A stretch of 64,000 bases of DNA. Source: a virus (Duplodnaviria; Heunggongvirae; Uroviricota; Caudoviricetes). Below are positions 1,971 to 53,000 of the stretch, piece after piece (positions within the stretch are counted from its first letter, which is position 1; each line of letters begins with the position of its first letter). A program made the position numbers and the translations under genes. The notes beneath the pieces are model-generated. The model searched no databases. It was not told the origin of the DNA and was given only the letters and a program-made list of their open reading frames with translations. The stretch covers positions 1 through 64,000 of the IMG/VR virus record IMGVR_UViG_3300036860_000563, one strand, 5' to 3'.

Positions 1971-3881
1971 TCACACCAACGTCTCAGTCGTGGAGATGTG
2001 GGAAGTTGACTCGTCGAAGACGTACGGGAGCTTAGCACCCCACGACTCACCGCGTGACACGGACGCGGTGATCGGAACGTTGAGTAGCTGATCGTCGTTC
2101 ATGATCTTACGAAGAGTGTGAGCGACGTCAGCGACGTGCTCACCGGGTACGTCCAGCAGCACCTCGTCGTGCACAGGTGCGAACATCCACTCATCGAGAC
2201 CCGCGCTGGCGAGCTCCACGAGCTTCATCTTAAAGATCTCACCAGCGCCGCACTGGATGATGAAGTTGACGAGCGCGTACTCCTTGCCCTCGTCGGCGAT
2301 GAGCCACCGCTGGGTGAACGGTGAGCGCACCCCACGCACACCACTACCGCGCGCCGCGCTTAGTGCGGTGTTGATCACGTCGCTCTGAAACCGTTGAACA
2401 CCCGGGAACCGCTGGTTCCACACACCGCGAAACGCGCGTGCGTTCTCGAGCGATATTCCGGCGGTCTGTGCGAACTTCGGTACGCCGGCGCCATATAGAG
2501 TAGCGTACGTGGCGTTCTTCGTTACCTGTCGCCGTGGATCGCTCTTAGTGATCGTGTCGTCATCATAGATCAGGCGCGCGAGGTTGACGAAGAAGTCACC
2601 ACCGTCGGTGAACGCCTTGATCATCGTGTGTTCATCCGCGACGTGAGCGAGTAGGCGAGCCTCGATCTGATCGAAGTCACACATCACGAGTGACCCACCC
2701 GCGTGACGAGTTGTGATCATGTTACGCACCACGTCACCGGGACGACTCGTGCCGAACCGTGGCAGGTTCTGCACGTTGGGACTGTCCATCGACATACGTG
2801 ACGTCCGCGCACCGAGTGTGTTGATGGACGGGTGAAGCAGGTCGTCCGCGTCGGCCTCCTCGACGTAGAACCGCAGGTAGGTCGACGCCATCTTCTGCAC
2901 CTGCCGACGCTGCAGCACAGCGCGCGCGAGCGGGTGATCGATCCCGTCGAGAACGTCGGCGTCGAGTGACTTTGCGCCCGACTTCGTCGCCTTGGAGAAC
3001 GTGAACCCGGCGTCTTCGAGGATCTCAATGATCGCAGTACTGGAGCCAGGTTTCACACCGTACTCCCGCCGACACCACTCTTCGACGCGTTCACAGTAGT
3101 CCTCGAACTCACGCAGCTTCTGCGTGGCGAGTGCTCGATCGACGTGCACACCGTAGCGCTCCATGCGCTCGGTGACCCAGAGGACGGCGCGCTCCAGGTC
3201 ATACGCCTTTGGTGCCTCTCGCTGGGTTATCGGGTAGTGGTGCTCGAAGAGCCTATACGTCAGCACCGGGTCCAGGGCGGCGTACGCCCAGTACGGCTGG
3301 TAGTCCAGCGGAACCGTAGCCCACGTCCACTTCGTGCCCGCGAGCTCGGTCTGCAGACCGGCGGCGGCGGCGTCGACGTGTCGCGTCGCCTGGTTCTTCA
3401 GTGCCATCGACATGTGAGGTTCGTTGATCCGTGACAACACCATGGTGTCATGCACCCGGTGACGCGGTAAACACACACCAGCGCGGTCGAGGAACGCCAT
3501 GTCAAAGGTGCTGTTGTGTAAGATCCAGTCACCCTGCCACGAGCGCACGAGCGACTCCATGATGCCACTCCACCGGTCCCACGAGAACGCGAAGCCACGC
3601 GCACCGTCGCCGACCTGCACGAGACGAAGTGTGTCTCGTTGCTTATTCAACCCGGTCGTCTCGGTGTCCAGTCCCAGCGCGTTCACCGGACGACGCTCGC
3701 CCAGCCATGAGTGAAGGGTGATGACGTCCTCGAGTGAGTTGACGAGGTGAAGCTTAACGTCACCGAGTGTCACGAGTTCACAGCTTCTTCCTCTTCCTCT
3801 TCCTCTTCCTCTTCCTCTTCCTCTTCCTCTTCCCACAGTGCCACACTGTGTCCGGTCATAGCACTGTGGAATGAGTGCCAC
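1971..3881 (-). CDS. polA: DNA polymerase I (family A) with 3'-5' exonuclease domain
   Basis: Exo motif LGLDTETTGLN. Polymerase motif B KNATYATLYGAG and motif C APVHDEVLLDVP. N-terminus uncertain: GTG 3881 includes (GR)9 encoded by (CTCTTC)n; alternative GTG at 3773 (VTLGDVKLHL). Neither has a good RBS. Confidence 0.85.
   Translation of the reverse strand: MALIPQCYDRTQCGTVGRGRGRGRGRGRGRGRSCELVTLGDVKLHLVNSLEDVITLHSWLGERRPVNALGLDTETTGLNKQRDTLRLVQVGDGARGFAFSWDRWSGIMESLVRSWQGDWILHNSTFDMAFLDRAGVCLPRHRVHDTMVLSRINEPHMSMALKNQATRHVDAAAAGLQTELAGTKWTWATVPLDYQPYWAYAALDPVLTYRLFEHHYPITQREAPKAYDLERAVLWVTERMERYGVHVDRALATQKLREFEDYCERVEEWCRREYGVKPGSSTAIIEILEDAGFTFSKATKSGAKSLDADVLDGIDHPLARAVLQRRQVQKMASTYLRFYVEEADADDLLHPSINTLGARTSRMSMDSPNVQNLPRFGTSRPGDVVRNMITTRHAGGSLVMCDFDQIEARLLAHVADEHTMIKAFTDGGDFFVNLARLIYDDDTITKSDPRRQVTKNATYATLYGAGVPKFAQTAGISLENARAFRGVWNQRFPGVQRFQSDVINTALSAARGSGVRGVRSPFTQRWLIADEGKEYALVNFIIQCGAGEIFKMKLVELASAGLDEWMFAPVHDEVLLDVPGEHVADVAHTLRKIMNDDQLLNVPITASVSRGESWGAKLPYVFDESTSHISTTETLV
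3785..3833. repeat. (CTCTTC)n hexanucleotide microsatellite, about 8-9 units
   Basis: Seen directly. Translates as (GR)n in the polA frame and as poly-Glu in overlapping ORF 3770..4015. Confidence 0.9.
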
Positions 3882-4002: not shown

Positions 4003-4476
4003 TCACGACACGCACGTAACCTCCAGCTCGCAGTTGGTGAGAAGTTCGTATGATCTCTCCGGGTTACGATGAGTGCCGCGCTCACGTCGACGTACGACGA
4101 CACGTCGTAGGCCCGAGTTGGCGATGACCTTAGCACACCCGAAGCAGACGTCACTCGTGACGTAGATCGTACCGCCCTCACGCGCCGATCGATCACAGAC
4201 TGACAACCCGTTGAGCTCAGCGTGTGATGATGGGCAGTCTGTGTAGTCCGAGTTGAGCTTCTCATCACGGTTAGTTAACGCTGCTCGCTGACACCACGCA
4301 CGACACGGTAGGTTACTGTGCGTGAAACCCCTGGGTGGGCCGTTGTAGCCCGTCGCGACGATGCGGTTACTCACGTTCACGATGACAGCACCCACCTGGT
4401 CGCGAACACAGAGACTACGCCGTGCGACGACGTCAGCGACGTTGAGCCACGTCTCGTCCCACGACGAGCGCGTCAC
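4003..4476 (-). CDS. dCMP deaminase (deoxycytidylate deaminase zinc-binding fold)
   Basis: SHAELNGL (HxE zinc ligand) and DVCFGCAKVI (CxxC zinc ligands). Extra LPCRAWC Cys pair. Confidence 0.75.
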   Translation of the reverse strand: MTRSSWDETWLNVADVVARRSLCVRDQVGAVIVNVSNRIVATGYNGPPRGFTHSNLPCRAWCQRAALTNRDEKLNSDYTDCPSSHAELNGLSVCDRSAREGGTIYVTSDVCFGCAKVIANSGLRRVVVRRRERGTHRNPERSYELLTNCELEVTCVS

Positions 4477-4735: not shown

Positions 4736-5572
4736 CTATGATGAAAGTTCCGTGAGTGGTGTGAGCTGATCGCGGTACCAACACTCACTCATAGTCATCG
4801 TGGGGATGTCAGAGTAGGGTAACGTCCGGGCGCGCATCATGATCGAGTGAAAGTTGTCCTCCACGCTTCCGAGACCACGCGGCTGCCACTCGGGTGGTCC
4901 AACCGCCGGGCGTAGCCACTCGACTCTCTCCACGTCTGCCTCGTAAATGTGTGTTGACCACGTGGTGTGACGATACGGGCCGGGTGATACACCCAGCGCG
5001 CGCGCCGCCGTCTGCTGGAGCTGAGTGAACTGAAACCAGTCGTAGGGGGACCCGAGCCAGACGTCCTGTGAGCGCATGGTGGTGCGTAGGTGCAACTGAT
5101 CGTTCTTGAGCTCGAAGTGGAGCGCCACGGTGCACGGGTAGTCACGGTGCCCCGGTAGGTTGTCCAACCACGGGTCCCACAGTGTGATGACGGCCTGCCG
5201 TGTCGCTGGGTCAGCGCGTAGCTTGTGGAGTGCGGCGGGCACCTGCAACCGAACCCGGTCACCGTACGCCCCGTAGAACCGCTGGGTGTCGGGTTCGAGA
5301 AACCGCTGAAAGTTTGGCGACGCGGTGATGAGTAACCGTGGGTCGCTAAACCCGCCGATGAGCTGCACCGCCTCCGCCGCCGCCACACGTCGGTTGACGT
5401 CACGACAGACGCCCAGTGGGAGTGATCGGCTAACGTCGTACATGATGACGGTCAGCTCACCTGCGTCCAGCGTCGGCAGGCCTCGCGGCGCGCGTCGTTC
5501 CCCGTGCTTGATGACGTAGTTCACGACATCGGCGTAGCCGACCACACCGTTCTCGATCTCGATGGTACTCAC
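4736..5572 (-). CDS. ThyA-family enzyme (thymidylate synthase / dNMP (hydroxy)methylase homolog) with Asp at the pyrimidine-specificity position
   Basis: Aligns to E. coli ThyA. GERRAPRGLPTL ~ dRTGTGTL. DPATRQAVITLWDP ~ DPDSRRIIVSAWNV. YPCTVALHFEL ~ APCHAFFQFYV (catalytic Cys). MRSQDVWLGSPYDWFQF ~ QRSCDVFLGLPFNIASY, where the ThyA N177 / T4 dCMP hydroxymethylase D179 equivalent is Asp. The Cys-to-Arg spacing (20) is conserved. Confidence 0.7.
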   Translation of the reverse strand: MSTIEIENGVVGYADVVNYVIKHGERRAPRGLPTLDAGELTVIMYDVSRSLPLGVCRDVNRRVAAAEAVQLIGGFSDPRLLITASPNFQRFLEPDTQRFYGAYGDRVRLQVPAALHKLRADPATRQAVITLWDPWLDNLPGHRDYPCTVALHFELKNDQLHLRTTMRSQDVWLGSPYDWFQFTQLQQTAARALGVSPGPYRHTTWSTHIYEADVERVEWLRPAVGPPEWQPRGLGSVEDNFHSIMMRARTLPYSDIPTMTMSECWYRDQLTPLTELSS

Positions 5573-5705: not shown

Positions 5706-6662
5706 TCACAGTGTTACCTCCGATGAGCGTGAACCGTGGAGTAAAGGTGTGGTGACTCCAGCCGCGTCGAGAAGCCGTGTGACGTACTCTCGTTGAGCGT
5801 GATGATGAAAGCGACGAGCGTGCTGCGGGTGCTCAACGCGACCGAACCCCACCAGCCCGGCGCTCGTCGCGGCGATCGCAGAGTTGTGACCCAGCGTCAC
5901 GGCCGGTGGGGCGCCGAGCGTCGTGTACGTAGCGCGTAGCTCGTCACCTGACAGCTCACACGCGTTGAGGACACCCACCCGCTGGACGTTCACATCGGCG
6001 CTCACCAGGGCGTCGAACAACCAGAGGCCGGACGTGCCGACAGCTGGGCCGAAGGGCCACGGTAACGCGCTCGCCGGGGTGTGGCCGGGGTTTCGGCGGT
6101 CGCCGAGTAGCAGTAAGCCGGGGTCGGGTGGACCGACGTAACTGGGCAGTGAGACCGGACGAGTCCTCTCCGCCAACCTTATGACGTCGACGGGGTCGTG
6201 GGGTTCGTCGGTCAGCAGGGTGAACCAGTGAGCGTGTGAGCGTGAACCACAGTACTCATCATATCGCAGCGCAACGTGTGCGAGCTGTTCGACGTCGATG
6301 AGATCATCACCACGCTCGACGAATCGGCCCAGGAGTGTCTCGGGTTGAGCTGTCACGTGAATGAACGTCGCACCGAGGGTACGTAGCACCAGCTCTACGT
6401 ACGCGGCCTGCCCCAGTGATAAGATCGATCTCTCGCGTAAGAGCGGACCGTAGATGAGCTCGCCCACGTGCCAACGATCCAACACGTGATGTCGTTCATC
6501 CCCGACCAGCGCACCCAGTGGTACGAGGTACTCACCCATCCCGGTGGCAGCGTGGGGTGGTGGACCCTTCTTCCAGTGGTGTGTGGTGCCGAGGTGTCGT
6601 ACCAGCTCGCGCGCGAGTGTCGTCTTACCCCCGCAGTCAGGCCCCTCTAGTACGATAATCAC
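5706..6662 (-). CDS. dNMP (thymidylate-kinase-like) kinase fused to a C-terminal uracil-DNA-glycosylase-superfamily-like domain
   Basis: N-terminal IIVLEGPDCGGKTTLAREL (P-loop) and LDRWHVGE (DR[YH] motif). C-terminal LGDRRNPGHTP...LPWPFGPAVGTSGLWLFDAL resembles UDG family 4/5 motif A (GEAPG..E..G.PFvG.AG.LL). TLGHNSAIA resembles motif B. Confidence 0.55.
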   Translation of the reverse strand: MIIVLEGPDCGGKTTLARELVRHLGTTHHWKKGPPPHAATGMGEYLVPLGALVGDERHHVLDRWHVGELIYGPLLRERSILSLGQAAYVELVLRTLGATFIHVTAQPETLLGRFVERGDDLIDVEQLAHVALRYDEYCGSRSHAHWFTLLTDEPHDPVDVIRLAERTRPVSLPSYVGPPDPGLLLLGDRRNPGHTPASALPWPFGPAVGTSGLWLFDALVSADVNVQRVGVLNACELSGDELRATYTTLGAPPAVTLGHNSAIAATSAGLVGFGRVEHPQHARRFHHHAQREYVTRLLDAAGVTTPLLHGSRSSEVTL

Positions 6663-6667
6663 GGTGA

Positions 6668-7048
6668 CTACACTACCACCGTTCGGGCAACCGGTGTGAA
6701 CGTGACGAGGGTGACGTCATGTGACCTAGCCCACGTCACGTCACTCTTCGTAGGTGCTGGCTTGGTGATGAAGTCGAGGACACGGCGCGCGTTGGGCCGG
6801 CCGAGGTGATGACGTCCACGCGCTCGTCGTAGCGCGTGACGCTGGAGCCGTGGACGCGCACCCCGACCGGTCGTGAACCGGCCGTCATCTTCATCGTGAG
6901 GACGCGCGTCACGTCGCTCGAGCTGATGATCACGGCGCGCGAGCACCGTGACGGCCAGCGACGCGGCGATGAACAGCACGAGACCGACCAGCACCGTCGA
7001 CCCGAAGAAGCCGAGCGCCAAGAAACCAAGACCACCGGCGAGTGTCAC
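6668..7048 (-). CDS. small membrane protein
   Basis: About 35 hydrophobic N-terminal residues (two TM-like segments), followed by an Arg-rich region. Confidence 0.35.
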   Translation of the reverse strand: MTLAGGLGFLALGFFGSTVLVGLVLFIAASLAVTVLARRDHQLERRDARPHDEDDGRFTTGRGARPRLQRHALRRARGRHHLGRPNARRVLDFITKPAPTKSDVTWARSHDVTLVTFTPVARTVVV

Positions 7049-7108
7049 AGCTTACCTACCTCTTCTCCTGCTTCTCTAAAGACCGTTCGGCGCTCTCTGA
7101 CGTCGTCA

Positions 7109-7837
7109 TCACCGCACGAGATCCAGCTCAGTCTGCACAGCGACAAGTCGATCCCACTTTTGCGCCTTCTCGGTGACCACGCCGTCGGCGCCCGCGGTGC
7201 TCTGCACGAGTTGAGCGAGCGTCACGAGCTCGGTCGTTAGCGTCACCAGGGTTGAGACGACGGTCTCGAGTGATGTGGCCACCGCGAGCACGCGCCGGCC
7301 CAGCTCGTGAGCGTTCTCGTCGGCGAGTTCCGGAACGGCGCCGTTGCTCGCGCTCGGTGTCGTCCGAGAAGCGCGTGATTCGTACCGAGTGCGTAGGTTA
7401 GGGAAGCGCTCGGTGTGCTTGCGGTACAGGACCGACACCTGTGAGCCCGTCCACAGGCCGCCACGAAGTGTACGTACACCGCGATCGTTCAGGTCGGAGG
7501 CCGCGAGTTCGTAGCGGTTGTGACGATCGAGGTGTCGGCACACGGCGCGGATCAGGGTGCGAAGTGTCTCGTCGGAGTAGGCCGGTCGTCGCTTGCCGAC
7601 GTAGTGAGCGAACATGTGCGACGTCACCGACTTGACGTTGGGAGCGACGTACTCGTAGTTCGGATGCTCGCACTCGAAGAGCTCGGTTTCGTCGGCGAGC
7701 AGCAGCTTCGTCACGTTCCGGTACGGTACCAGCTTACCGCCGTACTGGGGGTGTGGGTGAGGACCAACGGCTCGCTCACGCGCGATGATCTCGCGGCCGT
7801 CGGGGGTCATCTTCGTCGTCTTCATCACTCGTACCAC
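7109..7837 (-). CDS. hypothetical protein
   Basis: 242-aa ORF with high third-position GC. Helical, Thr/Leu-rich C-terminus. Confidence 0.45.
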   Translation of the reverse strand: MVRVMKTTKMTPDGREIIARERAVGPHPHPQYGGKLVPYRNVTKLLLADETELFECEHPNYEYVAPNVKSVTSHMFAHYVGKRRPAYSDETLRTLIRAVCRHLDRHNRYELAASDLNDRGVRTLRGGLWTGSQVSVLYRKHTERFPNLRTRYESRASRTTPSASNGAVPELADENAHELGRRVLAVATSLETVVSTLVTLTTELVTLAQLVQSTAGADGVVTEKAQKWDRLVAVQTELDLVR

Positions 7838-8109
7838 TCTCTGTGATCACTCTCTCGCCCAGCGGTTGGGTGAGACCTCTCGCCTCGCTACGCTGGATCA
7901 TACCAGGTACCTGCGCTAAAACCGTAGGTTACGTTGTGTGGACGACGACGCCCGGCGACCGCTTGTCAACTCGTCGGGAGTCGCCGCCGTCTCACCTTGT
8001 GGTACCGGTTCTTCACTCTTCCCCTCACAAGAAGCAAAGAACCACTCACTAGGTGTCCTCGCCGGGCTCGCCGCTGCACGACTCAAACAAGCTTAGACAC
8101 CTACGAGCG

Positions 8110-8183
8110 TAGCGGGAACCGGACTCGAACCGGTGACCTCTAGGTTATGAGCCTAGTGAGCTGCCGAGCTGCTCCACCCCGCG
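8110..8183 (-). tRNA. tRNA with CAT anticodon (Met or Ile2-type)
   Basis: Manual fold of the reverse strand: D-stem GAGC/GCTC, anticodon stem CTAGG/CCTAG with loop CTCATAA, variable loop AGGTC, T-arm ACCGG-TTCGAGT-CCGGT. Acceptor pairs 6/7 (position 1-72 is a C-U mismatch). Confidence 0.55.
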
Positions 8184-9879: not shown

Positions 9880-10731
9880 TCACTCATAAAAGTGATCCGG
9901 AAGACCAAACATGTCCGGGCTCTCAAGGATCATCGCGCCAATGTCAGTGTCCCGGTTGCTCTCGTTGCGCACGAACGGCTCGATCATCCGGCCACGGGGA
10001 TCGAAGTTGCTGAAGTACATGATGGACTTACGCTCGGGATCGTACTCCTCCGGCGAGCTGACTCGTAGGTTGCGTGCCTGGTGGAACAACGGCGGGATCT
10101 CCTCACCGGTCATCGCCGTCAGGATGCTGCCCGGCATGATGAACACCTCGTCCGAGGCCGGTGTCAACGATGTGATCACGTCGTTGTGAAAGATCTCCAA
10201 ACCCGGCGCGCTGGTCCAGATCACGGTGGCCACCACGCCGTCCTCGTGCCTGGTCTGCAGCAGCTCGCGCTCGGTCGGCGTGTGGAACGAGTTGAACTGA
10301 AGCACCGAGGTCGCCTCAAACGGCAACGCGGCAACACTCTCCACACCCTCGCCGTAGTACTCGCACAACTCGGCGACCAGGCGGGACATCAGCACGACGC
10401 AGACGTCGCGACGGTAGTCCTCCAGCGCGGTCAGCAACGGCCTGATCAGACCAAACTCTGGGATCGAGTAGGCCGACCTCACACCCCAGAAGAGAAAGGA
10501 GTCGTTGAGGTCCACGGCGTTGGGATCACCCGCGTGTGCGGCGCCCAGTGGCCGGTACCCGTTGTTCAACTTTGGCGATTGGTGCAGCGCTTGGCGCTCG
10601 GGATCGCGCTGGCTGAACTCCGTGGTCTGATCGTACAGCTCGGTGAGCAGGCGCGCCTGCCACGCGCCGAGCTGAACCCGGGCGAACCCCGCCACACGGA
10701 ACTGGGTCAACAGCGGCAACGCTACGCACAC
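9880..10731 (-). CDS. 2-oxoglutarate/Fe(II)-dependent oxygenase (isopenicillin-N-synthase-like fold)
   Basis: RHEDGVVATVIWTSAPGLEIF (HxD plus GLQV-like strand), FHQARN (distal His), RKSIMYFSNFD (Arg-x-Ser 2OG binding). Confidence 0.6.
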   Translation of the reverse strand: MCVALPLLTQFRVAGFARVQLGAWQARLLTELYDQTTEFSQRDPERQALHQSPKLNNGYRPLGAAHAGDPNAVDLNDSFLFWGVRSAYSIPEFGLIRPLLTALEDYRRDVCVVLMSRLVAELCEYYGEGVESVAALPFEATSVLQFNSFHTPTERELLQTRHEDGVVATVIWTSAPGLEIFHNDVITSLTPASDEVFIMPGSILTAMTGEEIPPLFHQARNLRVSSPEEYDPERKSIMYFSNFDPRGRMIEPFVRNESNRDTDIGAMILESPDMFGLPDHFYE

Positions 10732-11600: not shown

Positions 11601-12122
11601 CTACGTACGGTGTGAAGATGAGGGTTGAACGATCGCCGTCGCACCCTCGTTCGTGAGAGCACGATGTACACGGTTGGCCTCATCGAGGTCGGTGTGGGTG
11701 AGCACGTCGACGGGCGCGGACTCGACGAACTCCTTCGCATCGCGAATGCCGAGGGCGAGTAGTCGACGAATCGTCCGGATGATGGGCAGCTTGTTGGGGC
11801 CAACGTCGACGAGCCGAACCGTGAACTCGGTGGGCTCATCTTCCACGCTCAACTCGCCGACGGCATCACCAACCGCATCACCAGGTGGTGACACGAGACG
11901 TGCCGGCTCGGCTGTGACGTCGAACGTCTCCGCGAACCGACGATGAAACTCGGTCAGCTCGACGAGAGTGAGGCCCCCGAACGCTTCGAGTAGGTCAGAG
12001 ACACGACTCTCACCACTCTCACCACTCTCACCACTCTCACCACTCTCACCACTCTCACCACTCTCACCACTCTCACCACTCTCACCGCTCTGCTCCACGG
12101 GTCTTTGCCTCCTCACAACCAC
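11601..12122 (-). CDS. ribosomal protein bL12 (L7/L12)-like protein with an inserted (ESG)9 repeat
   Basis: C-terminal domain EFTVRLVDVGPNKLPIIRTIRRLLALGIRDAKEFVESAPVDVLTHTDLDEANRVHRALTNEGATAIV matches the L7/L12 CTD pattern (EFDV.L...G.NK..VIK.VR..TGLGLKEAK.LVE.AP). N-terminal-domain-like SDLLEAFGGLTLVELTEF. The ESG repeat is encoded by (CACCACTCT)9. Confidence 0.65.
   Translation of the reverse strand: MVVRRQRPVEQSGESGESGESGESGESGESGESGESGESRVSDLLEAFGGLTLVELTEFHRRFAETFDVTAEPARLVSPPGDAVGDAVGELSVEDEPTEFTVRLVDVGPNKLPIIRTIRRLLALGIRDAKEFVESAPVDVLTHTDLDEANRVHRALTNEGATAIVQPSSSHRT
12005..12089. repeat. (CACCACTCT)n 9-nt tandem repeat, about 9 units
   Basis: Seen directly. In frame as (ESG)n within the bL12-like gene. 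Confidence 0.9.
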
Positions 12123-13768
12123 GGCCAGTGTGCGTCACGACCGGCCTCTAAGAGTGGGATCAACGTGAACGCCGCGTCGGTGAGGCCACCGAAGGTGTGA
12201 CGGTTGTGACTACCCGCCGGCGCGTGACCGCGCTCGTAGCCCGCGAGGTTCCACGTGTAGAGTGGCGTCGTCGTGGGAACGACGGCGCTCACCTCGACGT
12301 GAGTGGCGTCCGCGGCGGCCTGCTCGTCGGTGATGATGATGACGCGATCGTGACCAGCGTGGTGTTGACGCAGCGCCGCGGCGGTCGCGGTGCCACCACC
12401 GAGGAAGAAGCCGTCACTCGCCCAGCGGGAGAGTGTCGTGAGTAACGACTCACCGTCCCGGAGTGCGAACGTCTTCGTGTGCGCGCCGTGTGCGTCGCCC
12501 CACACTCGGGCGGCCGACGAGAACGACACGAGGTCGGCGCTCTTCGCGCGACCGGCGAGCGCCGCGCCAAAGATCACCGCGACGTCCCAGCGCTTAAGTG
12601 TGCTGTTGTGCGAGAACTGCTCGTCCATCGAGGACGACGTGTCCACCAGGATGAGCGTCCTGCCGGTGAGCCGAGGAACGTTCGCGAGACAGTAGTTGAG
12701 CGCGCGCTCGAGCGGGTACGCCCAGCGGAGGCTGGGTGCCGCGCGGTGCGCCGCGAGAAGCCGGAGGGGAAGCTGCCGTGACCGCGCGACCTCGATCGGG
12801 TCGGCGAGCCTCGCTGCCACGGTCTGTGCGACCGCGTCTCGGACGCCCGCCTCGTCGAGGTTGCGCAGGTTACGTAGTAGTGCCATGTACCCCATCGAGG
12901 GCGCGAGTGCCTCCCACAGTAGGTTCTTCGGTAGCCGGTCGCCGGCTAGCGAGAGCACGTTCTCCCACGTCATACCCGCCGCGGCCAACGTCTCTACGTC
13001 GAGTAGCCCTGAGATACTGCTCTCTGCGACCAGCGAGCGCAGCTCAGCGTTGCGACGAACCGTCGTCAGCAGCTTGGGAACGGCGTTGTCGTGGCCGTGC
13101 CGCCGGTCCAGGGCGTACTTGAACAGCTCACCTTGCCACGGTGCGGTCGGACGTGGGTGAGTCAGCTCGACGACGTCCCCGAACCGAAACGCGTGTGATG
13201 TGGTGTCGTACTTGAGCAGCGCGCGCTCGGTGTAGAGTCGCCGAACGGCGTCGGTGACGCCACGCTTAACCGGCTGGGGTAGGTTCCGACCGTAGGACAC
13301 GACGTAGTACGCCAGCAGCTCACCCGGCTCGTCGGCGCGCCGCAACACCGCGTCGACGAGCGCCCGCGCCAGTCCCCTGTCGTCGGAGAGGCCCGGTACC
13401 TCGTAGGCCGGTACGGACCCGAGGTCAGGACGCTCGCGGCGCGCTCGGATGAACTCGACGGCCCCGACGAGCGGCGCGGAGCGAAGGTCGGCGTCGGCGC
13501 GGAGCCAGCGGAGAAGCTGGAACACCCACACCGGGTCGGTGACCGCGACGGCACGCACCAGCTCACGAAACCGTGTGTCTCGCCGGGACGCTGACTCGTA
13601 GAACGCATCCTCACCCACGAGGTTTGACACGGCGAGCAGGAACAGCTCACTCTTCTCGTCACGGGCGTAGCCGGGTGCGCCCTCGTGTGTGAGACCGCCG
13701 GGTGTAGCCTCGGTGGTGACCGGGCTGGTCGTCGCCGGACGGACGCCGAGAACGTTGAACTTAGTCAT
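12113..13768 (-). CDS. rsr: Ro60/Rsr ortholog (TROVE domain + vWA with MIDAS)
   Basis: Blocks matching human Ro60: ALLRNL (identical to Ro60 LTALLRNLG); RTLILVDTSSSMDEQ ~ RFLLAVDVSASMNQ (DxSxS MIDAS); GGGTA ~ GGTD; RVIIITDEQ ~ VFIVFTDNE; GGLTDAAFTLI ~ CGFDTGALDVI. Confidence 0.7.
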   Translation of the reverse strand: MTKFNVLGVRPATTSPVTTEATPGGLTHEGAPGYARDEKSELFLLAVSNLVGEDAFYESASRRDTRFRELVRAVAVTDPVWVFQLLRWLRADADLRSAPLVGAVEFIRARRERPDLGSVPAYEVPGLSDDRGLARALVDAVLRRADEPGELLAYYVVSYGRNLPQPVKRGVTDAVRRLYTERALLKYDTTSHAFRFGDVVELTHPRPTAPWQGELFKYALDRRHGHDNAVPKLLTTVRRNAELRSLVAESSISGLLDVETLAAAGMTWENVLSLAGDRLPKNLLWEALAPSMGYMALLRNLRNLDEAGVRDAVAQTVAARLADPIEVARSRQLPLRLLAAHRAAPSLRWAYPLERALNYCLANVPRLTGRTLILVDTSSSMDEQFSHNSTLKRWDVAVIFGAALAGRAKSADLVSFSSAARVWGDAHGAHTKTFALRDGESLLTTLSRWASDGFFLGGGTATAAALRQHHAGHDRVIIITDEQAAADATHVEVSAVVPTTTPLYTWNLAGYERGHAPAGSHNRHTFGGLTDAAFTLIPLLEAGRDAHWPWL

Positions 13769-24732: not shown

Positions 24733-25860
24733 ATGGTGATGACGACACTCGCTGACGTTCTCGATCCGCACGCGCTTCGGCGCGCGCTGACGAGTGGACA
24801 CGTCCGCGCCCAAGCTCACCCCGAGCTACCCTACACGATCTTGAACTACACCGAGCGAGCGGCGTATGACGTCGCCTGGAATGACGTCACGTTGTCGTGT
24901 CGTGGTCTGATCTACGATCACAGCACGGACGTGGTGCTCGCGCGACCGTTTCGGAAGTTCTTCAACTACGGACAGCTCTTCAGCCACGGACAGTCTAGCG
25001 GACCGATCCTCGACCTCGACTCCGCGGCGGTGGTCACGGACAAGGCGGACGGTAGCCTGGGCATCTTATACCCAACACCGGACGACTGGGCGATCGCGAC
25101 CCGTGGTTCGTTCACGAGCGACCAGGCGGTGCACGCCACCGAGGTCCTGCGGTCACGGTACGCCACGTTCGAACCGCCGCCCGGGCTGACCGTCCTGGTG
25201 GAGATCGTGTACCCGGGCAACCGGATCGTGCTGAACTACGGCGACCTGGACGACCTGATCCTGCTCGGCGCGGTGGACATCGCCACAGGTCGCTCATTCG
25301 ATCCTGGCGTCTTGATGGGTTGGCCCGGACCGGTAACCGAGGTCTTCTCCTACGCCACCCTGGCACAAGCGCTGGTGGCTCCGCCACGACCGAACGCGGA
25401 GGGGCTCGTGGTGCACCTATCCCACAGTGATAACCGGGTGAAGTTTAAGCAGGAGGACTACGTCGCGCTACACCGCATCGTCACCGGGCTCAACGCTCGC
25501 ACGGTGTGGCGGCACGTCGTCAGTGGTGAGCCGCTCGGTGAACTAATCACTCCGCTGCCCGACGAGTTTCACCCGTGGGTGCGCGCTGTCACCGCCGAGC
25601 TCACCGCTCGCGTCGAGCGACAGCGCGCCGAGCTGGTGCGGGCGTACGACGACGTGCTGTGGGAGCTGTCGCAGCTGACGAAGACGGCAGAGGACTGGAC
25701 GCGTAAGGACTTCGCGCTCCACGTAGCGTCCCACCCTCACCGCTGGGCGATGTTTATGCTACTAGATCGGCGTGACATCTGCCCAACACTGTGGCAGCGC
25801 GCTCAACCCGAGGCGTCGTGGACGCCGTCCGGACGCACCTACTCGGAGGACACAGCGTGA
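24733..25860 (+). CDS. ATP-dependent RNA ligase
   Basis: Nucleotidyltransferase motif I VVTDKADGSLGIL (KxDG), motif IV EGLVVH, motif V RVKFKQ. GAGAAGG RBS. Confidence 0.65.
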   Translation: MVMTTLADVLDPHALRRALTSGHVRAQAHPELPYTILNYTERAAYDVAWNDVTLSCRGLIYDHSTDVVLARPFRKFFNYGQLFSHGQSSGPILDLDSAAVVTDKADGSLGILYPTPDDWAIATRGSFTSDQAVHATEVLRSRYATFEPPPGLTVLVEIVYPGNRIVLNYGDLDDLILLGAVDIATGRSFDPGVLMGWPGPVTEVFSYATLAQALVAPPRPNAEGLVVHLSHSDNRVKFKQEDYVALHRIVTGLNARTVWRHVVSGEPLGELITPLPDEFHPWVRAVTAELTARVERQRAELVRAYDDVLWELSQLTKTAEDWTRKDFALHVASHPHRWAMFMLLDRRDICPTLWQRAQPEASWTPSGRTYSEDTA

Positions 25861-25918
25861 ACATGTTCTTCTTCATCGGCTTTGTGGTGGGACTACCGGT
25901 CTTCTACGTGATCGCTCG

Positions 25919-27055
25919 ATGGATCATGAGACGATGATGGACCTGTCGGGTGCGAGTCTTCAGGTGCTGCTCACCGTACACACGAACCTGCGCAACGGCC
26001 TGAGTCGCGTCGCTGAGACGCTGGACGACGGCACGTTTCACGTCGTTGGAGCGCACGGTGAGGCGTCACCGGCCCAGTTTGGTCAGCTCATTCTCATCCT
26101 ACTCAGAGAGATCAACGCCGAGCTCTATCGGAGAACGGAAGCCCTCATGCCGACGCTGACGATCACCCGCGGCCTGCCCGCCTGCGGCAAGACGACCTGG
26201 GCTCGGGCCTGGGTGGCGCGTGACCCGACCCACCGGGCCAGGGTGAACCGGGACGACCTGCGCGCCATGGTCCACGACGGGGTGTGGCTCGGGCAGGACA
26301 CCGAGAAGCAGATCGTCGCCGGCCGCGACGCCACGATCCGGGCACTGCTACGGCGCGGGGTCGACGTGGTGTGCGACGACACCAACCTGCCGCAGCGAAC
26401 CGCCCGGGACCTGCGCCGCCTCGCCGTTGTGGCCGGTGCCGAGTTCCTGGTGGTTGACTTGAGCGACGTGCCGGTCGGCGAGTGCGTGCGCCGCGACGCC
26501 GTCCGTGACCGGCCGGTCGGCGAGTCGGTGATCCGGGACATGTGGAACCGGCACGTGCGTGGCCGGCCGCGTCCGCTGCCGCTCGCCGACGAGCCGCAGG
26601 ACGGGGGCGACCAGCCGGTGCCCTACGTTCCGCCGCCGGGCGCACCCAGCGCGGTGCTCGTCGACGTCGACGGCACAGTGGCGCTGATGGCCGCCCGGTC
26701 GCCGTACGACGAGACGCGCGTGCGCGAGGATCGTCCCAACCTGCCGGTGATCGCTGTGGTGAACGCACTCTACGACGCCGGCCACGCCGTGGTGTTCTGC
26801 TCGGGCCGCACCGAGGGCTGCCGCGTCGAGACCGAACGCTGGCTCTGTGAGCACGTGATGGCGCCGGTCACCGCTCTTCACATGCGCGCCGTTGGCGACA
26901 CTCGCAGAGACGCGATCGTGAAGCTGGAGCTGTTCGACCGCCACATCCGCGACGCGTACCGCGTGGTGTGCGTCCTCGACGACCGCGACCAGGTCGTAGA
27001 GATGTGGCGTGCGCTGGGCCTGACGGCGCTGCAGGTGGCACCCGGCGACTTCTAG
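25919..27055 (+). CDS. polynucleotide kinase-phosphatase (P-loop kinase + DxDxT phosphatase)
   Basis: TRGLPACGKTTWA (P-loop); VLVDVDGTVA (DxDGT); VCVLDDRDQVV (HAD motif IV). The catalytic core probably starts at ATG 26147. 25919..26146 is in the same frame with no stop, so the N-terminal limit is uncertain. Confidence 0.7.
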   Translation: MDHETMMDLSGASLQVLLTVHTNLRNGLSRVAETLDDGTFHVVGAHGEASPAQFGQLILILLREINAELYRRTEALMPTLTITRGLPACGKTTWARAWVARDPTHRARVNRDDLRAMVHDGVWLGQDTEKQIVAGRDATIRALLRRGVDVVCDDTNLPQRTARDLRRLAVVAGAEFLVVDLSDVPVGECVRRDAVRDRPVGESVIRDMWNRHVRGRPRPLPLADEPQDGGDQPVPYVPPPGAPSAVLVDVDGTVALMAARSPYDETRVREDRPNLPVIAVVNALYDAGHAVVFCSGRTEGCRVETERWLCEHVMAPVTALHMRAVGDTRRDAIVKLELFDRHIRDAYRVVCVLDDRDQVVEMWRALGLTALQVAPGDF

Positions 27056-29774: not shown

Positions 29775-30491
29775 GTGACGAGGAGAGTGACGCCCGTGAA
29801 CACGGTGCTGCTGAATGGGATCGTCGGGTCGACCGCGTACAACTTAGCGGACTCTGACTCGGACGTGGACAGACTCGGGATCTTCGCCGTTGACACGGTG
29901 GAGCTGCACGGGTTGAGGCGTCCGGTTGAGAGCATCGTTAGGACGCATCCGGATCGCACGCTTCACGAGGTGGGTAAGTGGTGTCGACTCGCACTTAACG
30001 GTAACCCCACCGTGATGGAGCTCGTGTGGTTACCGCGTGACCTGTACGAGGAGAGCACCGAGCTCGGCGAGGAACTCATCGCGTTACGTGGCGAGTTCTT
30101 GAGTGCGAGTCGCGTGCGAGACGCGTACCTGGGCTACGCCACCCAGCAGTTCTACAAGCTTCAGGCGCGCGGTGATGGGTCGTTCTCTGCCGACACGCGT
30201 AAGCGTATGGCGAAGCACGCACGACACCTACTTCGGCTGCTCGAGCAGGGCGTCGAGCTGCACCGGACCGGCACGTTGACGATCCGGCTCTCACCAGAAG
30301 TCGCCGCCGCGGTGCGCGAGTTCGGCGACCGGGTCGCGACCGGTGACGTGGAGGAAGCGCGTGTAAAGCTCTCACTGTTCGAGGAGGTGTTCCGCACGGT
30401 GTCGACGCCACTGCCCGCTGAGCCCAACGTCGAGCGCGTGGAGCGCTGGCTGCGTGAGGTGCGACGACAACACTACGCTTCTGAGAAGTAA
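29775..30491 (+). CDS. minimal pol-beta-superfamily nucleotidyltransferase
   Basis: LLNGIVGSTAYNLADSDSDVDRLGIF is the GS-x9-DxD NTase signature. Alternative GTG starts at 29787 and 29796. Confidence 0.55.
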   Translation: MTRRVTPVNTVLLNGIVGSTAYNLADSDSDVDRLGIFAVDTVELHGLRRPVESIVRTHPDRTLHEVGKWCRLALNGNPTVMELVWLPRDLYEESTELGEELIALRGEFLSASRVRDAYLGYATQQFYKLQARGDGSFSADTRKRMAKHARHLLRLLEQGVELHRTGTLTIRLSPEVAAAVREFGDRVATGDVEEARVKLSLFEEVFRTVSTPLPAEPNVERVERWLREVRRQHYASEK

Positions 30492-35737: not shown

Positions 35738-35807
35738 GGGATGATAGCTTAACGGGAAAAGCCCGGGTCGCTCCCGGCGTACGCTGGTTCGAGGCCAGCT
35801 CATCCCA
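35738..35807 (+). tRNA. tRNA-like element with perfect acceptor, D- and T-arms but a non-canonical anticodon arm (CGC at the anticodon position)
   Basis: Manual fold: acceptor GGGATGA/TCATCCC + A73; D-stem GCTT/AAGC; T-arm GCTGG-TTCGAGG-CCAGC; variable loop CGTAC. Anticodon arm is either CCGGG-TCGCT-CCCGG (5-nt loop) or a 4-bp stem with loop GTCGCTC. Confidence 0.45.
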
Positions 35808-35951
35808 CGAGAGACACTCGTCCTAGGAGTGAGCGTCACTCGAGGATGTGAGTGGCGGAGGAAGTGGAGCCGGTTGGACCGTCCGGCGCGCGACACACCG
35901 GTACGATCGCTTGGTCAGCGAGGGACTACCGGTACCCGATCTCACATCCGA

Positions 35952-36023
35952 ACCTACGTAGCTCAACGGACAGAGCACCGGTCTACGAAGCCGGTGGTGG
36001 AGGTTCGACTCCTCTCGTAGGTA
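35952..36023 (+). tRNA. tRNA-Arg (anticodon ACG)
   Basis: Manual fold: acceptor ACCTACG/CGTAGGT; D-stem GCTC/GAGC; anticodon stem CCGGT/GCCGG with loop CTACGAA; T-arm GGAGG-TTCGACT-CCTCT; discriminator A. Confidence 0.7.
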
Positions 36024-36039
36024 CGAAGATCTTGATAGG

Positions 36040-50042: not shown

Positions 50043-53000
50043 GCGCGCTCGAGGACGACATTGGCTTCACACTCACCACCGTCGTTGAGATGCCACGCGG
50101 TCTGACCACGGACGAGGCACACCGGTTTCTCGCCACAGGTGAGTTGCTAACCGACGTGAATGTCGAGCTGACGTTAGCGACCACGGAGGTAGGTCCCACG
50201 GTGGCGCGGAGAGCACCGAGTGCGAGTGAGGTGCGAGCGTGGCTCGCGGGTGTGGCACCAGCGATCACGGCCGGAGGGTCCAGCGCTAACGTACGTCACG
50301 AGAAGTACGTTGGTGAACTAGGTGATGATGACCAGACGGGTGAACACGCAGGCCGATGGTGTGAGTCAGCTGAGCTGGTTAAACCGGTTGAACTGGCTAA
50401 AACTGGTACAAAATTGGTGCCGGTAACCTCCTCCGAGACGCCCGAACCGTCACCGGCCGTAGTCGAACCAACGGTGAAATCAGTGATGGATGTGACGCAT
50501 ACCGGAGCTATGATCGCATTAAGGCCCGCCGACGTCGACGCCCAGCGACTCGCCATTGACGGCGGTGAGGAACCGAACGAGCTGCACTGCACGCTCTACT
50601 ACCTGGGAGACGCCACCAACTTCTCCGAGGACGCGCGTGCGCAACTCATCGACCTCGTGCGTGAGTACGTGTACGACTCACCCACGCTCACGGTGGATGG
50701 CTTTGCGATCTCCATGTTCAACCCACCGGGTACCGAGCGAGTTGACGATGACATGGAGCGTGAGCCGTGCGTCGTGCTGGGCCTGTCCGGGTCCGCGTTG
50801 ACGTCGGTGCACGACGCCGTCGCGACCGCCATCGAGGACCACGGTGTCGACCTACCGGAGCAGCACTCACCCTGGGTTCCGCACATCACACTCGTCTACA
50901 CCGATGACGCGGACCTGAGTGCGTTCACCGAGAAGACCGGACCGGTGACACTTGATACGGTGTGCGTGTACTTCGGTGATGACCGATACGAGATTCCACT
51001 GGACGAGAGTAGTGACGATGACGATGACGACGAGCAAACGACGGGTGACGCTGCGTACGACGTTGAGCTGAGTGACGCGGGTGAGCTGATCGTACCGAAC
51101 GTGCTGCTCGACTGGCGAGCGTGGGTGACGCTCGAGAGAGAACGTGACGTCAACCTACCGAGTGGGCCCGGTCACCAGCTTCGGGACTACTGGGTTCACG
51201 GTCCCGGCGCACTGAAGATCAGGTGGAACACGGAGGGTGACGGCACGCGGTGCATCCGGTACCTTCGTAAGTACGTGAAGGATCCGGGTGGCCTGTGCCA
51301 AGAGTATCACCGACTCGCGACCGGTAAGAGCATGCACCCACACCCGGGACGAGTCACCGAGTCCAGCGACACCGTAACACTGAGTGACACCTCGTTGTAC
51401 GGTAGACCTAACGCCGAGGGAGGTGCTGACGTGCCCTGGCACGTTGAGAAGCGTGGTGATGAGTTCTGCGTCGTGAAGGACGCCGATGACAGTGTGGCTG
51501 GGTGTCACAACCTACGAACAGACGCGATCAACCAGCTGCGCGCGCTCTACGCGAGTGAACCAGATGTGGCCGCCGACGCGCGCGTCGTAGGTGACTGCCC
51601 ACCGGGACATCATCGTATGCCCAGCGGTGAGTGCATGGCCGACGAGGACATGACGTCACCAACACCAACGTCAACACCGGCAGTAGGCCCGAGTGGCGCG
51701 TACGAGCTCGACCCGGCCGCGACGATCGCACCGTGGGAGGGTGTGCTGACCCTGGAGGGTGTCGAGTCCGGTGACGGTCGAATGTTCGCCGCCGGTTCAC
51801 TGTCGTGGGACACAACGCCGAGTGACGGTCTACCGCTGATGTGGCAGAAGGAGACGAGTCACGGTGGTCAGGGTGACGTCTCGGTGCGAGTTGGTAGCGT
51901 TCAGGAGGTGTGGCGTGAGCCCGACCCGGGTGGACGCGCCGACGTTAACATGATCAGGGGTCGGGGCGTCTTCGACCTGCGCAACCCGGACGGCCACGAG
52001 GCCCACCGACGCATGTGGGACGGCTTCATGTCCGGCAACTCGGTGGACGTGGACTCGGTGAAGGACGCGAGCGTCGAGGTCGTCTACCCAGCGACGGTAA
52101 CGGAGAGTGGTAGCGCGAGTTCTCAGGTGTTCGGCACGCCCGAGCTCACGGTGTTTCACCGTGGACGCATCCGCGGCACGACGCTCGTCGAGTTTCCAGC
52201 GTTCACCGAGGCGCGGCTGCACCTCATCAACCCGGTGACGGCGAGCGCCGAAGAGTCCGGTGACGATGACGTGACGAGCGCAGAGACGGCGACGACGACT
52301 CTCACCGGCTCCAGCACCGGTGCGACCGAGGTGCACGTCGCGGCGTCATCAGACGCGTCGTGGGACGCCGGTGCCAACGAGACCAGGCTACCGTCGCCGT
52401 TACCACTGAGCGTCGCTAAGAAGATGTTCGCGTACGTGGACACGTCGCAGGTCGAGAACGGTCACGTACCGAAGAGTGCGGGTAAGCTGCCCCACCACGA
52501 GGTGAGCGTGACCGGTGCTCCGGGGGCGGCCAACCTCACCGGTGTGTCGGCCGCGATCGGCGCGCTGCACGGCGCGCGAACGCCGGTGAGCGTTCCGAGT
52601 GGAGCGCGTCACGCGATCTACGAGCACCTCGCGGCTCACCTGCGTGCCGCTGGGCGTGAGCCACCGCCGTTCTCACTCGTGGCTGAGCGAACGCAGACCC
52701 TCGTGGCGGCGACCAGCGTCATTCAGATCTCGGACACACCGCCACGTGAGTGGTTCGCCGAGCCGGTCGACGTGCCGGCGCACGGTGCGCTGACCGTCAC
52801 CGCCGAGGGCCGTGTGTACGGCTACCTCGCACCGCTCAACGTACGTCACCGTTCGTTCTCCGGGCGCAACCAACTCGTACCGTTTAAGAACGTCGACTAC
52901 GACCGGTTCATGGGTGGTGAGACGATCGTCGCGGACGGCGGGCGTGTGACGACCGGCCCGATCACGATGAACTGTGGCCACCTACCACCGGTTCCGGGTT

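Follow-up and report, generated by a model that had tools for sequence, protein, structure and literature searches.

A predicted phage nucleotide kinase fused to a minimal uracil-DNA-glycosylase-like domain and linked to putative dCMP hydroxymethylases

Why should a phage gene join a nucleotide kinase to a fold of the uracil-DNA glycosylase (UDG) superfamily, and what would such a protein do next to an enzyme predicted to modify deoxycytidine monophosphate (dCMP)? The question was raised by a minus-strand gene at 5706..6662 of a 64,000-nucleotide stretch (positions 1 to 64,000 of the IMG/VR record IMGVR_UViG_3300036860_000563, a virus of the Caudoviricetes), which is called the window throughout. 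A first, sequence-only reading, made without database searches, had described the product as a deoxynucleoside monophosphate (dNMP) kinase fused to a UDG-like domain. Our analysis leads us to propose, at a probability of about one half, a bifunctional phage enzyme belonging to a module for modified-pyrimidine DNA precursors, in which one domain would act as a kinase of 5-hydroxymethyl-dCMP (5-hmdCMP) and the other in uracil-type base excision. The features of the gene are as follows.

5706..6662, minus strand: kinase-UDG fusion gene of 318 codons and a stop codon, with a GTG start at 6662
6168..6662, minus strand: P-loop kinase domain resembling YorR and thymidylate kinases (TMKs), residues 1-165, from PHROG, PDB, Pfam and Foldseek
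6618..6650, minus strand: Walker A motif (P-loop) LEGPDCGGKTT, residues 5-15
6468..6479, minus strand: DRWH, of the 'DRY' type of TMKs, residues 62-65
5763..6140, minus strand: minimal UDG-superfamily domain, residues 175-300, from profile, fold and conservation
6084..6104, minus strand: GDRRNPG, the equivalent of UDG motif A, residues 187-193
6018..6062, minus strand: PWPFGPAVGTSGLWL, a loop of the form PF..P...TSG..L, residues 201-215
5955..5966, minus strand: N233-A-C-E236, from conservation and the alignment with family 4 and UdgX
5880..5891, minus strand: GHNS, part of a conserved LG..A strand, residues 258-261
5808..5831, minus strand: HPQHARRF, UDG motif B, residues 278-285, from conservation

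The two halves form one gene. The minus-strand open reading frame (ORF) at 5706..6662 runs uninterrupted for 318 amino acids (aa), with neither a stop nor a frameshift inside; a reading of the same interval on the plus strand was rejected, its translation being full of stops. All peptide motifs quoted in the sequence-only reading were found at the expected residues, and 58 homologues of about 300 aa aligned over 92-99% of the query. With an open ORF and full-length homologues, the objection that two separate genes had been read as one is excluded for the window. The GTG start lies 5 nucleotides (nt) past the stop of the upstream gene. Because the homologues begin with the same sequence, MIIxLEGPD, we read the GTG at 6662 as the true start and the public JGI gene call (P0001, 277 aa), which begins at Met42 and loses the P-loop, as truncated; an annotation built on P0001 would overlook the kinase. 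The AlphaFold (AF2) model of the whole fusion had a mean confidence (pLDDT) of 93.9 and a predicted template-modelling score (pTM) of 0.92, and the latter value suggests a fixed arrangement between the two domains. By family median the UDG domain is mildly basic, with a net charge of +2, and the kinase domain acidic (-4). An assembly artefact, in which two genes were joined by a missed stop or frameshift, could be suspected from a short metagenomic contig (L096) in which a TAA in frame separates the kinase from the UDG part, but it is so improbable as to be negligible: the window ORF is open throughout its 318 codons, hundreds to thousands of fused proteins come from independent assemblies, and the AF2 model packs the two domains confidently. 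The contig itself (L096:2-1536) carries a natural split, in which the kinase ORF stops at the TAA and the UDG ORF restarts in the same frame at a GTG two codons on, with a ThyA gene of the Asp type described below coming next; this could be a true two-gene form, a sequencing error or a programmed readthrough.

The assignment of the N-terminal half to the TMK/YorR-like P-loop kinases was borne out by sequence matches, fold matches and conserved motifs. Residues 1-139 matched the PHROG 'thymidylate kinase' family phrog_761 (1.8e-13), and the best solved relative was YorR of the SPbeta prophage (2axp/3kb2), found with an E-value of 2.6e-9 when the single sequence was compared with the PDB. Using the profile of the 58-member family, YorR (2axp) was found at 6e-21, with bona fide thymidylate kinases next. 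Foldseek searches with the whole model likewise put YorR at the top (template-modelling score 0.76-0.78 on the target), followed by deoxynucleoside and thymidylate kinases. The kinase families matched by the 58 members were Thymidylate_kin (26/58), dNK and YorR. In an alignment of 184 diverse full-length relatives, which is the source of all conservation values given here, the Walker A residues G12, K13 and T15 were 91-99% conserved, D62 99% and R63 100%, with G67, E68 and Y71 downstream all at 98% or more. The protein thus has the TMK fold together with GxxxxGK[ST] (G7..G12-K13-T15), DR[YWHF] (D62-R63-W64) and the LID arginines R113 and R117, these residues being 80-100% conserved. The score against the NCBIfam dTMP-kinase equivalog TIGR00041 was 16.4 bits, below the cut-off of 83.25, and so 'thymidylate kinase' is best read as a fold-level label and not as a substrate assignment.

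The C-terminal half was less easily placed, since the fusion protein from the window alone gave no Pfam match there, although 12 of the 58 homologues matched the Pfam UDG family PF03167 (best E-value 2.1e-8). A profile of residues 166-318 built from 36 members retrieved only UDG-superfamily entries from the PDB (best E-value 2.7e-4), namely TM0511 and the enzymes of T. thermophilus (UDGA) and S. tokodaii, all of family 4, as well as UdgX, family 5 and the UDG domain of a phage family-A DNA polymerase (PolA). Foldseek results for the whole model were swamped by kinase matches, and residues 166-318 were therefore modelled separately (pLDDT 88); the top 45 matches of this model all belonged to the UDG superfamily. 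The fold is the alpha/beta arrangement with a four-stranded parallel sheet common to families 1-6 and UdgX. Profile and fold evidence thus agree with the original suggestion of a UDG-superfamily domain, with families 4, 5 and UdgX as the nearest.

The active-site residues can be followed in the hidden Markov model (HMM) alignment, where G187-D188 falls over the GE of motif A, P203-F204 over the PF of 'PFvG.AG' and N233 over the conserved Asn, so that the motif A acid, the stacking Phe and the Asn line up with those of TM0511 and UdgX. F204 aligns with the UdgX residue counted as F65, the loop PWPFGPAVGTSGLWL corresponds to the family-4 loop 'PFvG.AG..L', and N233 falls on the Asn by which family 4 and UdgX recognise the base. 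The expected acid, Phe, Asn and His are all present and strongly conserved (G187 100%, F204 99%, N233 99%, H278-P279 100%), as are R283, R284 and F285 of motif B (94-99%). Two details of the sequence-only reading had to be revised. GHNS, which had been taken for motif B, is part of the LG..A strand, and motif B is H278-P279-Q-H-A-R-R-F285. The catalytic Glu had been said to be replaced, and in the window it is indeed Asp188; the change is a conservative one, position 188 being Asp in 76% of the relatives, Glu in 24% and His in a single one, and deeper branches of the fusion family retain GE in motif A. The family signatures are [LV]-G-[DE]-x-R-[NG], N-A-x-[ED] and H-P-Q-[YFW]-x-R-R-F, of which the acidic residue three positions after N233 (E/D236, 92% conserved) is peculiar to the fusion family. 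The family-4 forms GE[AG]PG of motif A and HP[SA]xxLR of motif B are absent; the motif A acid, the His-Pro and an Arg at H+6 are kept from family 4, but motif A has lost its Pro-Gly and motif B its Leu residues. Since four conserved cysteines that could serve as the family-4 Fe-S ligands are lacking (only two alignment columns reach as much as 40-46% Cys), the domain would be without an Fe-S cluster. It begins at Y-x-G before strand 1, the N-terminal helices are missing, and the stretch from the Asn strand to the LG strand is about 24 residues shorter than in UdgX and family 4 (query 71-83 against chain 94-130), with an N233-to-G258 spacing of 22-25 residues across the family. On this alignment evidence the domain amounts to a minimal UDG core of about 130 residues.

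How widespread the combination is was assessed with the C-terminal profile, which was run with HMMER exhaustively over 1.84 billion cluster representatives (clusters at 50% identity). The search returned 2,552 representatives at E <= 1e-3 and 1,954 at E <= 1e-10. Among the best 150 of the 2,552, almost all were 290-360 aa long with the UDG domain at about 170-310, and the N-terminal P-loop was present in 123/140 new representatives and the HP motif in 139/140. A large viral family has the kinase-UDG fusion as its usual architecture. IMG/VR held more than 300 loci related to the fusion, and in the GTDB species genomes the matches listed were only weak kinase-only ones (Patescibacteria and archaeal metagenome-assembled genomes) with no fusion among them; the fusion appears, from these distributions, to be viral. 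A megablast of the first 12 kb of the window against 50,697 phage genomes gave no match, and tblastn found only one relative with the long architecture, the remainder being kinase-only and YorR-like. This relative, DSL-LC01 (GenBank OQ999401, L088), is a metagenome-assembled Actinomycetia phage from freshwater, in which (6001-7841) the fusion WJZ48531.1 is deposited as 'thymidylate kinase' and its neighbour WJZ48532.1 as 'thymidylate synthase'. Both labels are probably mis-specific, for a kinase-UDG fusion and for a protein with the D/D/D dCMP-hydroxymethylase signature described below, respectively; the genome paper has no discussion of the kinase-UDG or ThyA-like genes. The kinase-only relatives are about 160-200 aa long. 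In two further loci (L062:6965-7849 and L080:6989-7915) a C-terminal extension of UDG length is retained in which G-[DE], N-A and HPQ..RRF are gone, the catalytic residues having vanished together; the inactive UDG domain of N4-like polymerases offers a parallel.

The neighbourhood of the fusion gene provides the second line of evidence. The genes concerned are these.

4736..5572, minus strand: ThyA-like gene, predicted dCMP hydroxymethylase (Pfam 3.6e-21), directly downstream of the fusion
4003..4476, minus strand: dCMP deaminase (Pfam/PHROG), in the same operon-like module
1971..3881, minus strand: PolA, without a UDG domain of its own

The minus-strand order in the window is thus fusion, ThyA-like, dCMP deaminase, PolA, and the same order, extended by an SNF2 helicase, a PD-(D/E)XK nuclease and AAA_24, was found again in distant relatives. 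HMM searches on the six-frame ORFs of 87 related loci and the window placed a ThyA-like ORF directly downstream, on the same strand, in 72/72 fusion loci, which answers the earlier proposal to check for such co-occurrence; dCMP deaminase was present in 73/87 related loci and PolA in 77/87. The kinase-only relatives adjoin the same type of ThyA as well, and kinase and hydroxymethylase therefore appear to be the core pair. The sequence-only reading had considered that such a fusion could couple phosphorylation of a modified dNMP with recognition or exclusion of uracil or modified bases. A coupling of phosphorylation and base recognition is compatible with the data and is made more plausible by the invariant linkage of the genes.

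The predicted activity of the neighbour depends on a few diagnostic residues. In E. coli ThyA numbering, N177D denotes a dCMP substrate, L143D/E a non-methyl (hydroxymethyl) product through water access, and D169N a 5-hydroxy-dCMP synthase (PMC13326640); the same paper, with the mutagenesis that it cites, links these diagnostics to dCMP substrates and non-methyl products. The ThyA-like protein of the window has the nucleophile C147, D144 at the position of L143, D170 at that of D169 and D178 at that of N177. The E. coli ThyA sequence used as reference reproduced the published numbering exactly. The D/D/D signature at these three positions was found in 76 of 82 ThyA-like ORFs, the exceptions being mostly misregisters of the regular expression. 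The best PDB match of the window protein was the CMP 5-hydroxymethylase MilA (8e-15). Because of N177D, L143D and the retained Asp169 we predict the neighbour to be a dCMP hydroxymethylase with residues of the T4 gp42/MilA type, in agreement with its earlier description as a predicted dCMP-modifying enzyme. A 5-hydroxy-dCMP synthase is ruled out by the retained Asp169, and a true thymidylate synthase by N177D and L143D; some loci, three of those related, additionally encode a separate ThyX. Putative YorR/TMK-like nucleotide kinases lie one to two genes from cytosine-specific ThyA homologues also in DLP3, RB69 and RL38J1 (PMC13326640), and the combination of such a kinase with such a synthase therefore recurs.

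Two other features of this module were observed. In the closest relatives of the window (L001:1861-2499, L002:8890-9441, also L008-L013) an unannotated gene of 183-212 aa with a weak match to phrog_1342 separates the fusion from the ThyA-like gene, where the window has only a gap of 133 nt; PHROG and Pfam scans of this small ORF and of the window neighbours gave nothing informative. A perfect hexanucleotide repeat, (TCTTCC)x8, at 3786-3833 separates the dCMP deaminase gene from that of PolA and is read as (GR)n in an over-extended PolA N-terminus and as poly-Ser or poly-Glu in other frames. The repeat is probably intergenic or in the 5' region of PolA, with the real PolA start downstream of it.

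From these data the following function can be proposed. The ThyA homologue, judged by its active-site residues, would turn dCMP into 5-hmdCMP, and the kinase domain would phosphorylate 5-hmdCMP, and possibly other dNMPs, to the diphosphate with ATP. This substrate is favoured because the fusion invariably adjoins a predicted 5-hmdCMP synthase, and the kinase is placed in the role that gp1 has beside gp42 in T4; a scan of about 45 window ORFs brought up no second dNMP kinase. Host nucleoside diphosphate kinase and then phage PolA would carry the modified nucleotide into DNA. The C-terminal domain would be a pared-down family-4-like glycosylase, probably active because the residues that would stack on, read and stabilise the uracil are almost invariant in a very divergent family. 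A flipped uracil-type base may be held in a pocket where F204 stacks on it, N233 contacts its Watson-Crick edge and H278 stabilises O2, with D188 substituting for the family-4 Glu and R283, R284 and F285 occupying the space that the base leaves in the duplex. Deoxyuridine (dU) is the likely substrate, as the phage dCMP deaminase and the kinase would enlarge the dUMP/dUTP pool, and 5-hydroxymethyluracil (5-hmU) from deaminated 5-hydroxymethylcytosine (5-hmC) is a possible alternative. Fusion would ensure 1:1 co-expression and may keep nucleotide supply at the replicating DNA. Strong purifying selection acts on the two active sites, as seen at G12, K13, T15, D62, R63, E68, Y71, R113 and R117 of the kinase and at G187, [D/E]188, F204, N233, H278, P279, R283, R284 and F285 of the UDG domain. 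An active family-4-like UDG fused to PolA, which excises dU ahead of the fork, has been described in phages with modified pyrimidines (bioRxiv 10.1101/2025.03.26.645540).

Several observations weigh against this proposal. Relative to family 4 the domain has neither an Fe-S cluster nor N-terminal helices and is some 24 residues shorter behind the Asn strand, and its motif A reads G-[DE]-x-R and not GE[AG]PG, so that neither catalytic competence nor DNA binding is assured. The C-terminal domain is degenerate in L062 and L080 and absent from other relatives, and a glycosylase activity is therefore dispensable. There is no obvious need of a 5-hmC phage for a uracil glycosylase joined to its kinase, and no dCTPase or glycosyltransferase was found among the approximately 45 window ORFs to support full replacement of cytosine. 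The sequence gives no substrate specificity for the kinase, which also matches M6 gp54, a 5-hydroxymethyldeoxyuridine (5-hmdU) DNA kinase (hhalign probability 92.8%). Finally, the co-occurrence sample, consisting of the 80 best IMG/VR loci, is phylogenetically non-independent.

Some of these points could be explained if only the kinase were an enzyme, acting on (5-hydroxymethyl-)dNMPs, and the UDG fold served as a non-catalytic tether to DNA or the replisome or as a uracil sensor. A domain so strongly reduced, at about 130 aa without the Fe-S cluster and the loop after the Asn strand, with a deviating motif A and with degenerate versions retained in L062 and L080, might well have such a role, as might one packed rigidly on the kinase (pTM 0.92). 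Vaccinia D4 in the polymerase holoenzyme is a precedent for tethering by a UDG fold, and inactive UDG domains on PolA have been described, that of the N4-like PolA having lost its catalytic residues (bioRxiv 10.1101/2025.03.26.645540). The loss of these residues in the N4-like precedent is, however, what the fusion family does not share; its acid at 188, F204, N233 and H278-P279 are near-absolutely conserved, which is hard to square with a mere tether, and we regard this explanation as unlikely.

Another explanation would be an active glycosylase with a target other than uracil, such as 5-hmU or T in G mismatches, which are the deamination products of phage 5-hmC or 5-methylcytosine, or the unmodified bases of host DNA, attack on which would be a device for host shutoff or exclusion. 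The strict linkage to dCMP hydroxymethylases suggests a task specific to modified-cytosine genomes, and both the motif A sequence G-[DE]-x-R-N and the extra acid E/D236 (92%) differ from the canonical uracil-specific families. On the other hand, the nearest relatives in sequence and structure are the uracil-specific family 4 and UdgX, and N233 suits hydrogen bonding of the uracil type, not the cytosine type, as the Asn of UDG pockets does. A non-uracil target thus seems quite unlikely, and excision of uracil is preferred.

A further possibility concerns the kinase. The UDG fold might flip a 5-hydroxymethyl-pyrimidine out of DNA and the P-loop domain phosphorylate its hydroxymethyl group, as an entry into hypermodification similar to that of the 5-hmdU DNA kinases (5-HMUDK). 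These are also small, TMK-like, located near ThyA-like hydroxymethylases and fused to DNA-acting domains (PMC5889632, PMC8989533), and the hhalign match of the fusion family to M6 gp54 was noted above. Moreover, in L006, the most distant of the fusion loci, an enzyme dependent on pyridoxal phosphate (PLP; PALP family) is encoded just upstream and a ThyX separately, an arrangement that recalls M6 gp52-gp54. Yet the families matched by the 58 members were Thymidylate_kin, dNK and YorR, with PF18748 not among them; the window and L001-L005 showed no amino-acid:DNA transferase (aGPT-Pplase), radical-SAM enzyme or glycosyltransferase, and neither AADT nor the sculpting enzymes dependent on PLP or flavin adenine dinucleotide (FAD). 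The linked synthase is cytosine-specific, whereas the Asn of the UDG pocket fits uracil-type bases, and a 5-hmdCMP phage requires a mononucleotide kinase, for which no other candidate was found. We therefore consider a DNA base kinase highly improbable. A broader version, in which the protein is a DNA-directed base-modifying machine of an undescribed hypermodification pathway or, more mildly, a new UDG family for lesions derived from 5-hmU or 5-hmC, is only a little less so and remains very unlikely. Membership in the 5-HMUDK family itself was rejected: M6 gp54 matches Pfam HMUDK_HMUD1 (PF18748) at 7.7e-18 and the fusion protein does not match it, the hhalign likeness being confined to the P-loop and LID regions. 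An analogy with aGPT-Pplase was also rejected, as this glycosylase has a helix-hairpin-helix fold and not the UDG fold.

The gene content of L006 may be recorded here in full (L006:2864-11019; SRR10418764_865; P0057). Upstream of the fusion there are five unannotated ORFs of 101-385 aa and then the PALP enzyme, and downstream an Asp-type ThyA, dCMP deaminase and the separate ThyX. The layout is reminiscent of the thymidine-hypermodification cluster gp51-gp58 of M6 and may, by this analogy, encode a further base modification.

What is already known are both superfamilies and the fusion of UDG domains to replication enzymes. The kinase-UDG architecture appears to be undescribed, in line with the sequence-only reading: no such fusion was found in the literature, in a search that covered few subscription journals, or in the family libraries, and neither the C-terminal domain nor the fusion has a Pfam, PHROG or NCBIfam model. 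The minimal, Fe-S-less UDG subtype with motifs of its own, the obligate linkage to predicted dCMP hydroxymethylases and the abundance in viral metagenomes likewise appear to be undescribed. If the proposed function is correct, thousands of uncultured phages share a three-gene signature (kinase-UDG, Asp-type ThyA, dCMP deaminase) which forecasts DNA of the 5-hydroxymethylcytosine type and would be a cheap marker of modified genomes. 5-Hydroxymethylcytosine DNA is documented mainly in T-even-like phages, and modified genomes withstand restriction enzymes and complicate sequencing. Many carriers appear to be of the actinobacterial type; the window has a GC content of 63%, and the GenBank relative comes from an Actinomycetia phage. 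The C-terminal domain would rank among the smallest proteins of the UDG fold known and could offer a minimal catalytic core and possibly a reagent. Labels such as 'thymidylate kinase', 'thymidylate synthase' and 'hypothetical protein' mask the nature of the module.

The window has other features apart from this module.

8109-8183, minus strand: tRNA-Met-CAT, just upstream of the replication/nucleotide module
35738-35808, plus strand: tRNA-Ala-CGC
35952-36024, plus strand: tRNA-Arg-ACG

The minus-strand gene at 9880-10731, which lies some 3 kb further upstream than the nucleotide module, encodes a protein of 283 aa with a weak match to 2-oxoglutarate-Fe(II) oxygenases (Pfam 5e-4; PDB 8xht, E-value 0.023); no PHROG match was obtained, and none of the related loci with inspected gene calls showed a counterpart. 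Its product could be a dioxygenase acting on nucleic acids or small molecules. An unusual, RNA-centred set of genes is distributed over 11601-13768 (minus strand) and 25772-27055, 29775-30491 and 50039-53479 (all plus strand). It comprises a 551-aa Ro60/TROVE and VWA protein (TROVE 3.2e-17), a 173-aa protein resembling ribosomal protein L7/L12 with a collagen-like N-terminus, a polynucleotide kinase-phosphatase (PNKP; HAD_PNKP 3e-54), an RlaP nucleotidyltransferase of the 'RNA repair pathway' (5e-19) and a 2'-5' RNA ligase-like segment within a 1146-aa protein. The annotations suggest a phage module for RNA/tRNA repair or anti-defence.

Compared with known systems, the fusion has the P-loop fold, Walker A, DR[WYF] motif and LID arginines of YorR, the TMKs and the deoxynucleoside kinases, but YorR and the TMKs are single-domain proteins, whereas the fusion adds a UDG fold of about 130 aa packed tightly on the kinase. 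With family 4 (TM0511, 1l9g; T. thermophilus UDGA, 1ui0) it shares, in collinear order, the motif A acid, the PF loop, the Asn strand, the LG strand and the HP of motif B. It differs in its size (about 130 against 190-205 aa), in having neither the 4Fe-4S cysteines nor the N-terminal helices, in its motifs G-[DE]-x-R and HPQ[YFW]xRRF, where family 4 has GE[AG]PG in motif A, and in being always fused to a kinase. In UdgX of M. smegmatis (6ail, 6ajo) the R-loop KRRIH with the crosslinking His109 falls in the segment that is deleted from the fusion family, and covalent crosslinking of the UdgX type is therefore not expected. The T4 pair gp42 and gp1 follows the same proposed logic of a cytosine-specific ThyA homologue, a phage kinase and a dCMP deaminase; the fusion kinase, however, is YorR/TMK-like and joined to a UDG domain, gp1 belongs to another family, and no dCTPase or glucosyltransferase was identified in the window. 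The 5-HMUDK proteins are likewise small TMK-like P-loop kinases beside a ThyA-like hydroxymethylase, and fusions of theirs to DNA-modifying domains are known, but the fusion described here has no PF18748 match, no aGPT-Pplase/AADT partner and a synthase of the dCMP type beside it.

A parallel in design is found in the PolA-UDG proteins of SPO1-, SP10- and SP15/YerA41/phiLo-like phages (9qhs), where a family-4-like UDG is likewise placed on a replication-associated enzyme. These phages replace a pyrimidine by a 5-substituted one, and the fusion phages are predicted to do so too. Active and inactivated UDG versions occur among the PolA-UDG proteins, and the fusion family has versions with intact motifs and decayed ones (L062, L080) for which the same is predicted. 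The partner is a nucleotide kinase in one case and the polymerase in the other, the PolA of the window being without a UDG domain, and the ThyA homologue is cytosine-specific beside the fusion but dUMP-specific in the PolA-UDG phages. Since UDG domains have been joined to PolA in 5-hmU phages and to a kinase here, the comparison suggests that the policing of uracil is tied to the replacement of pyrimidines and that this link may have evolved more than once.

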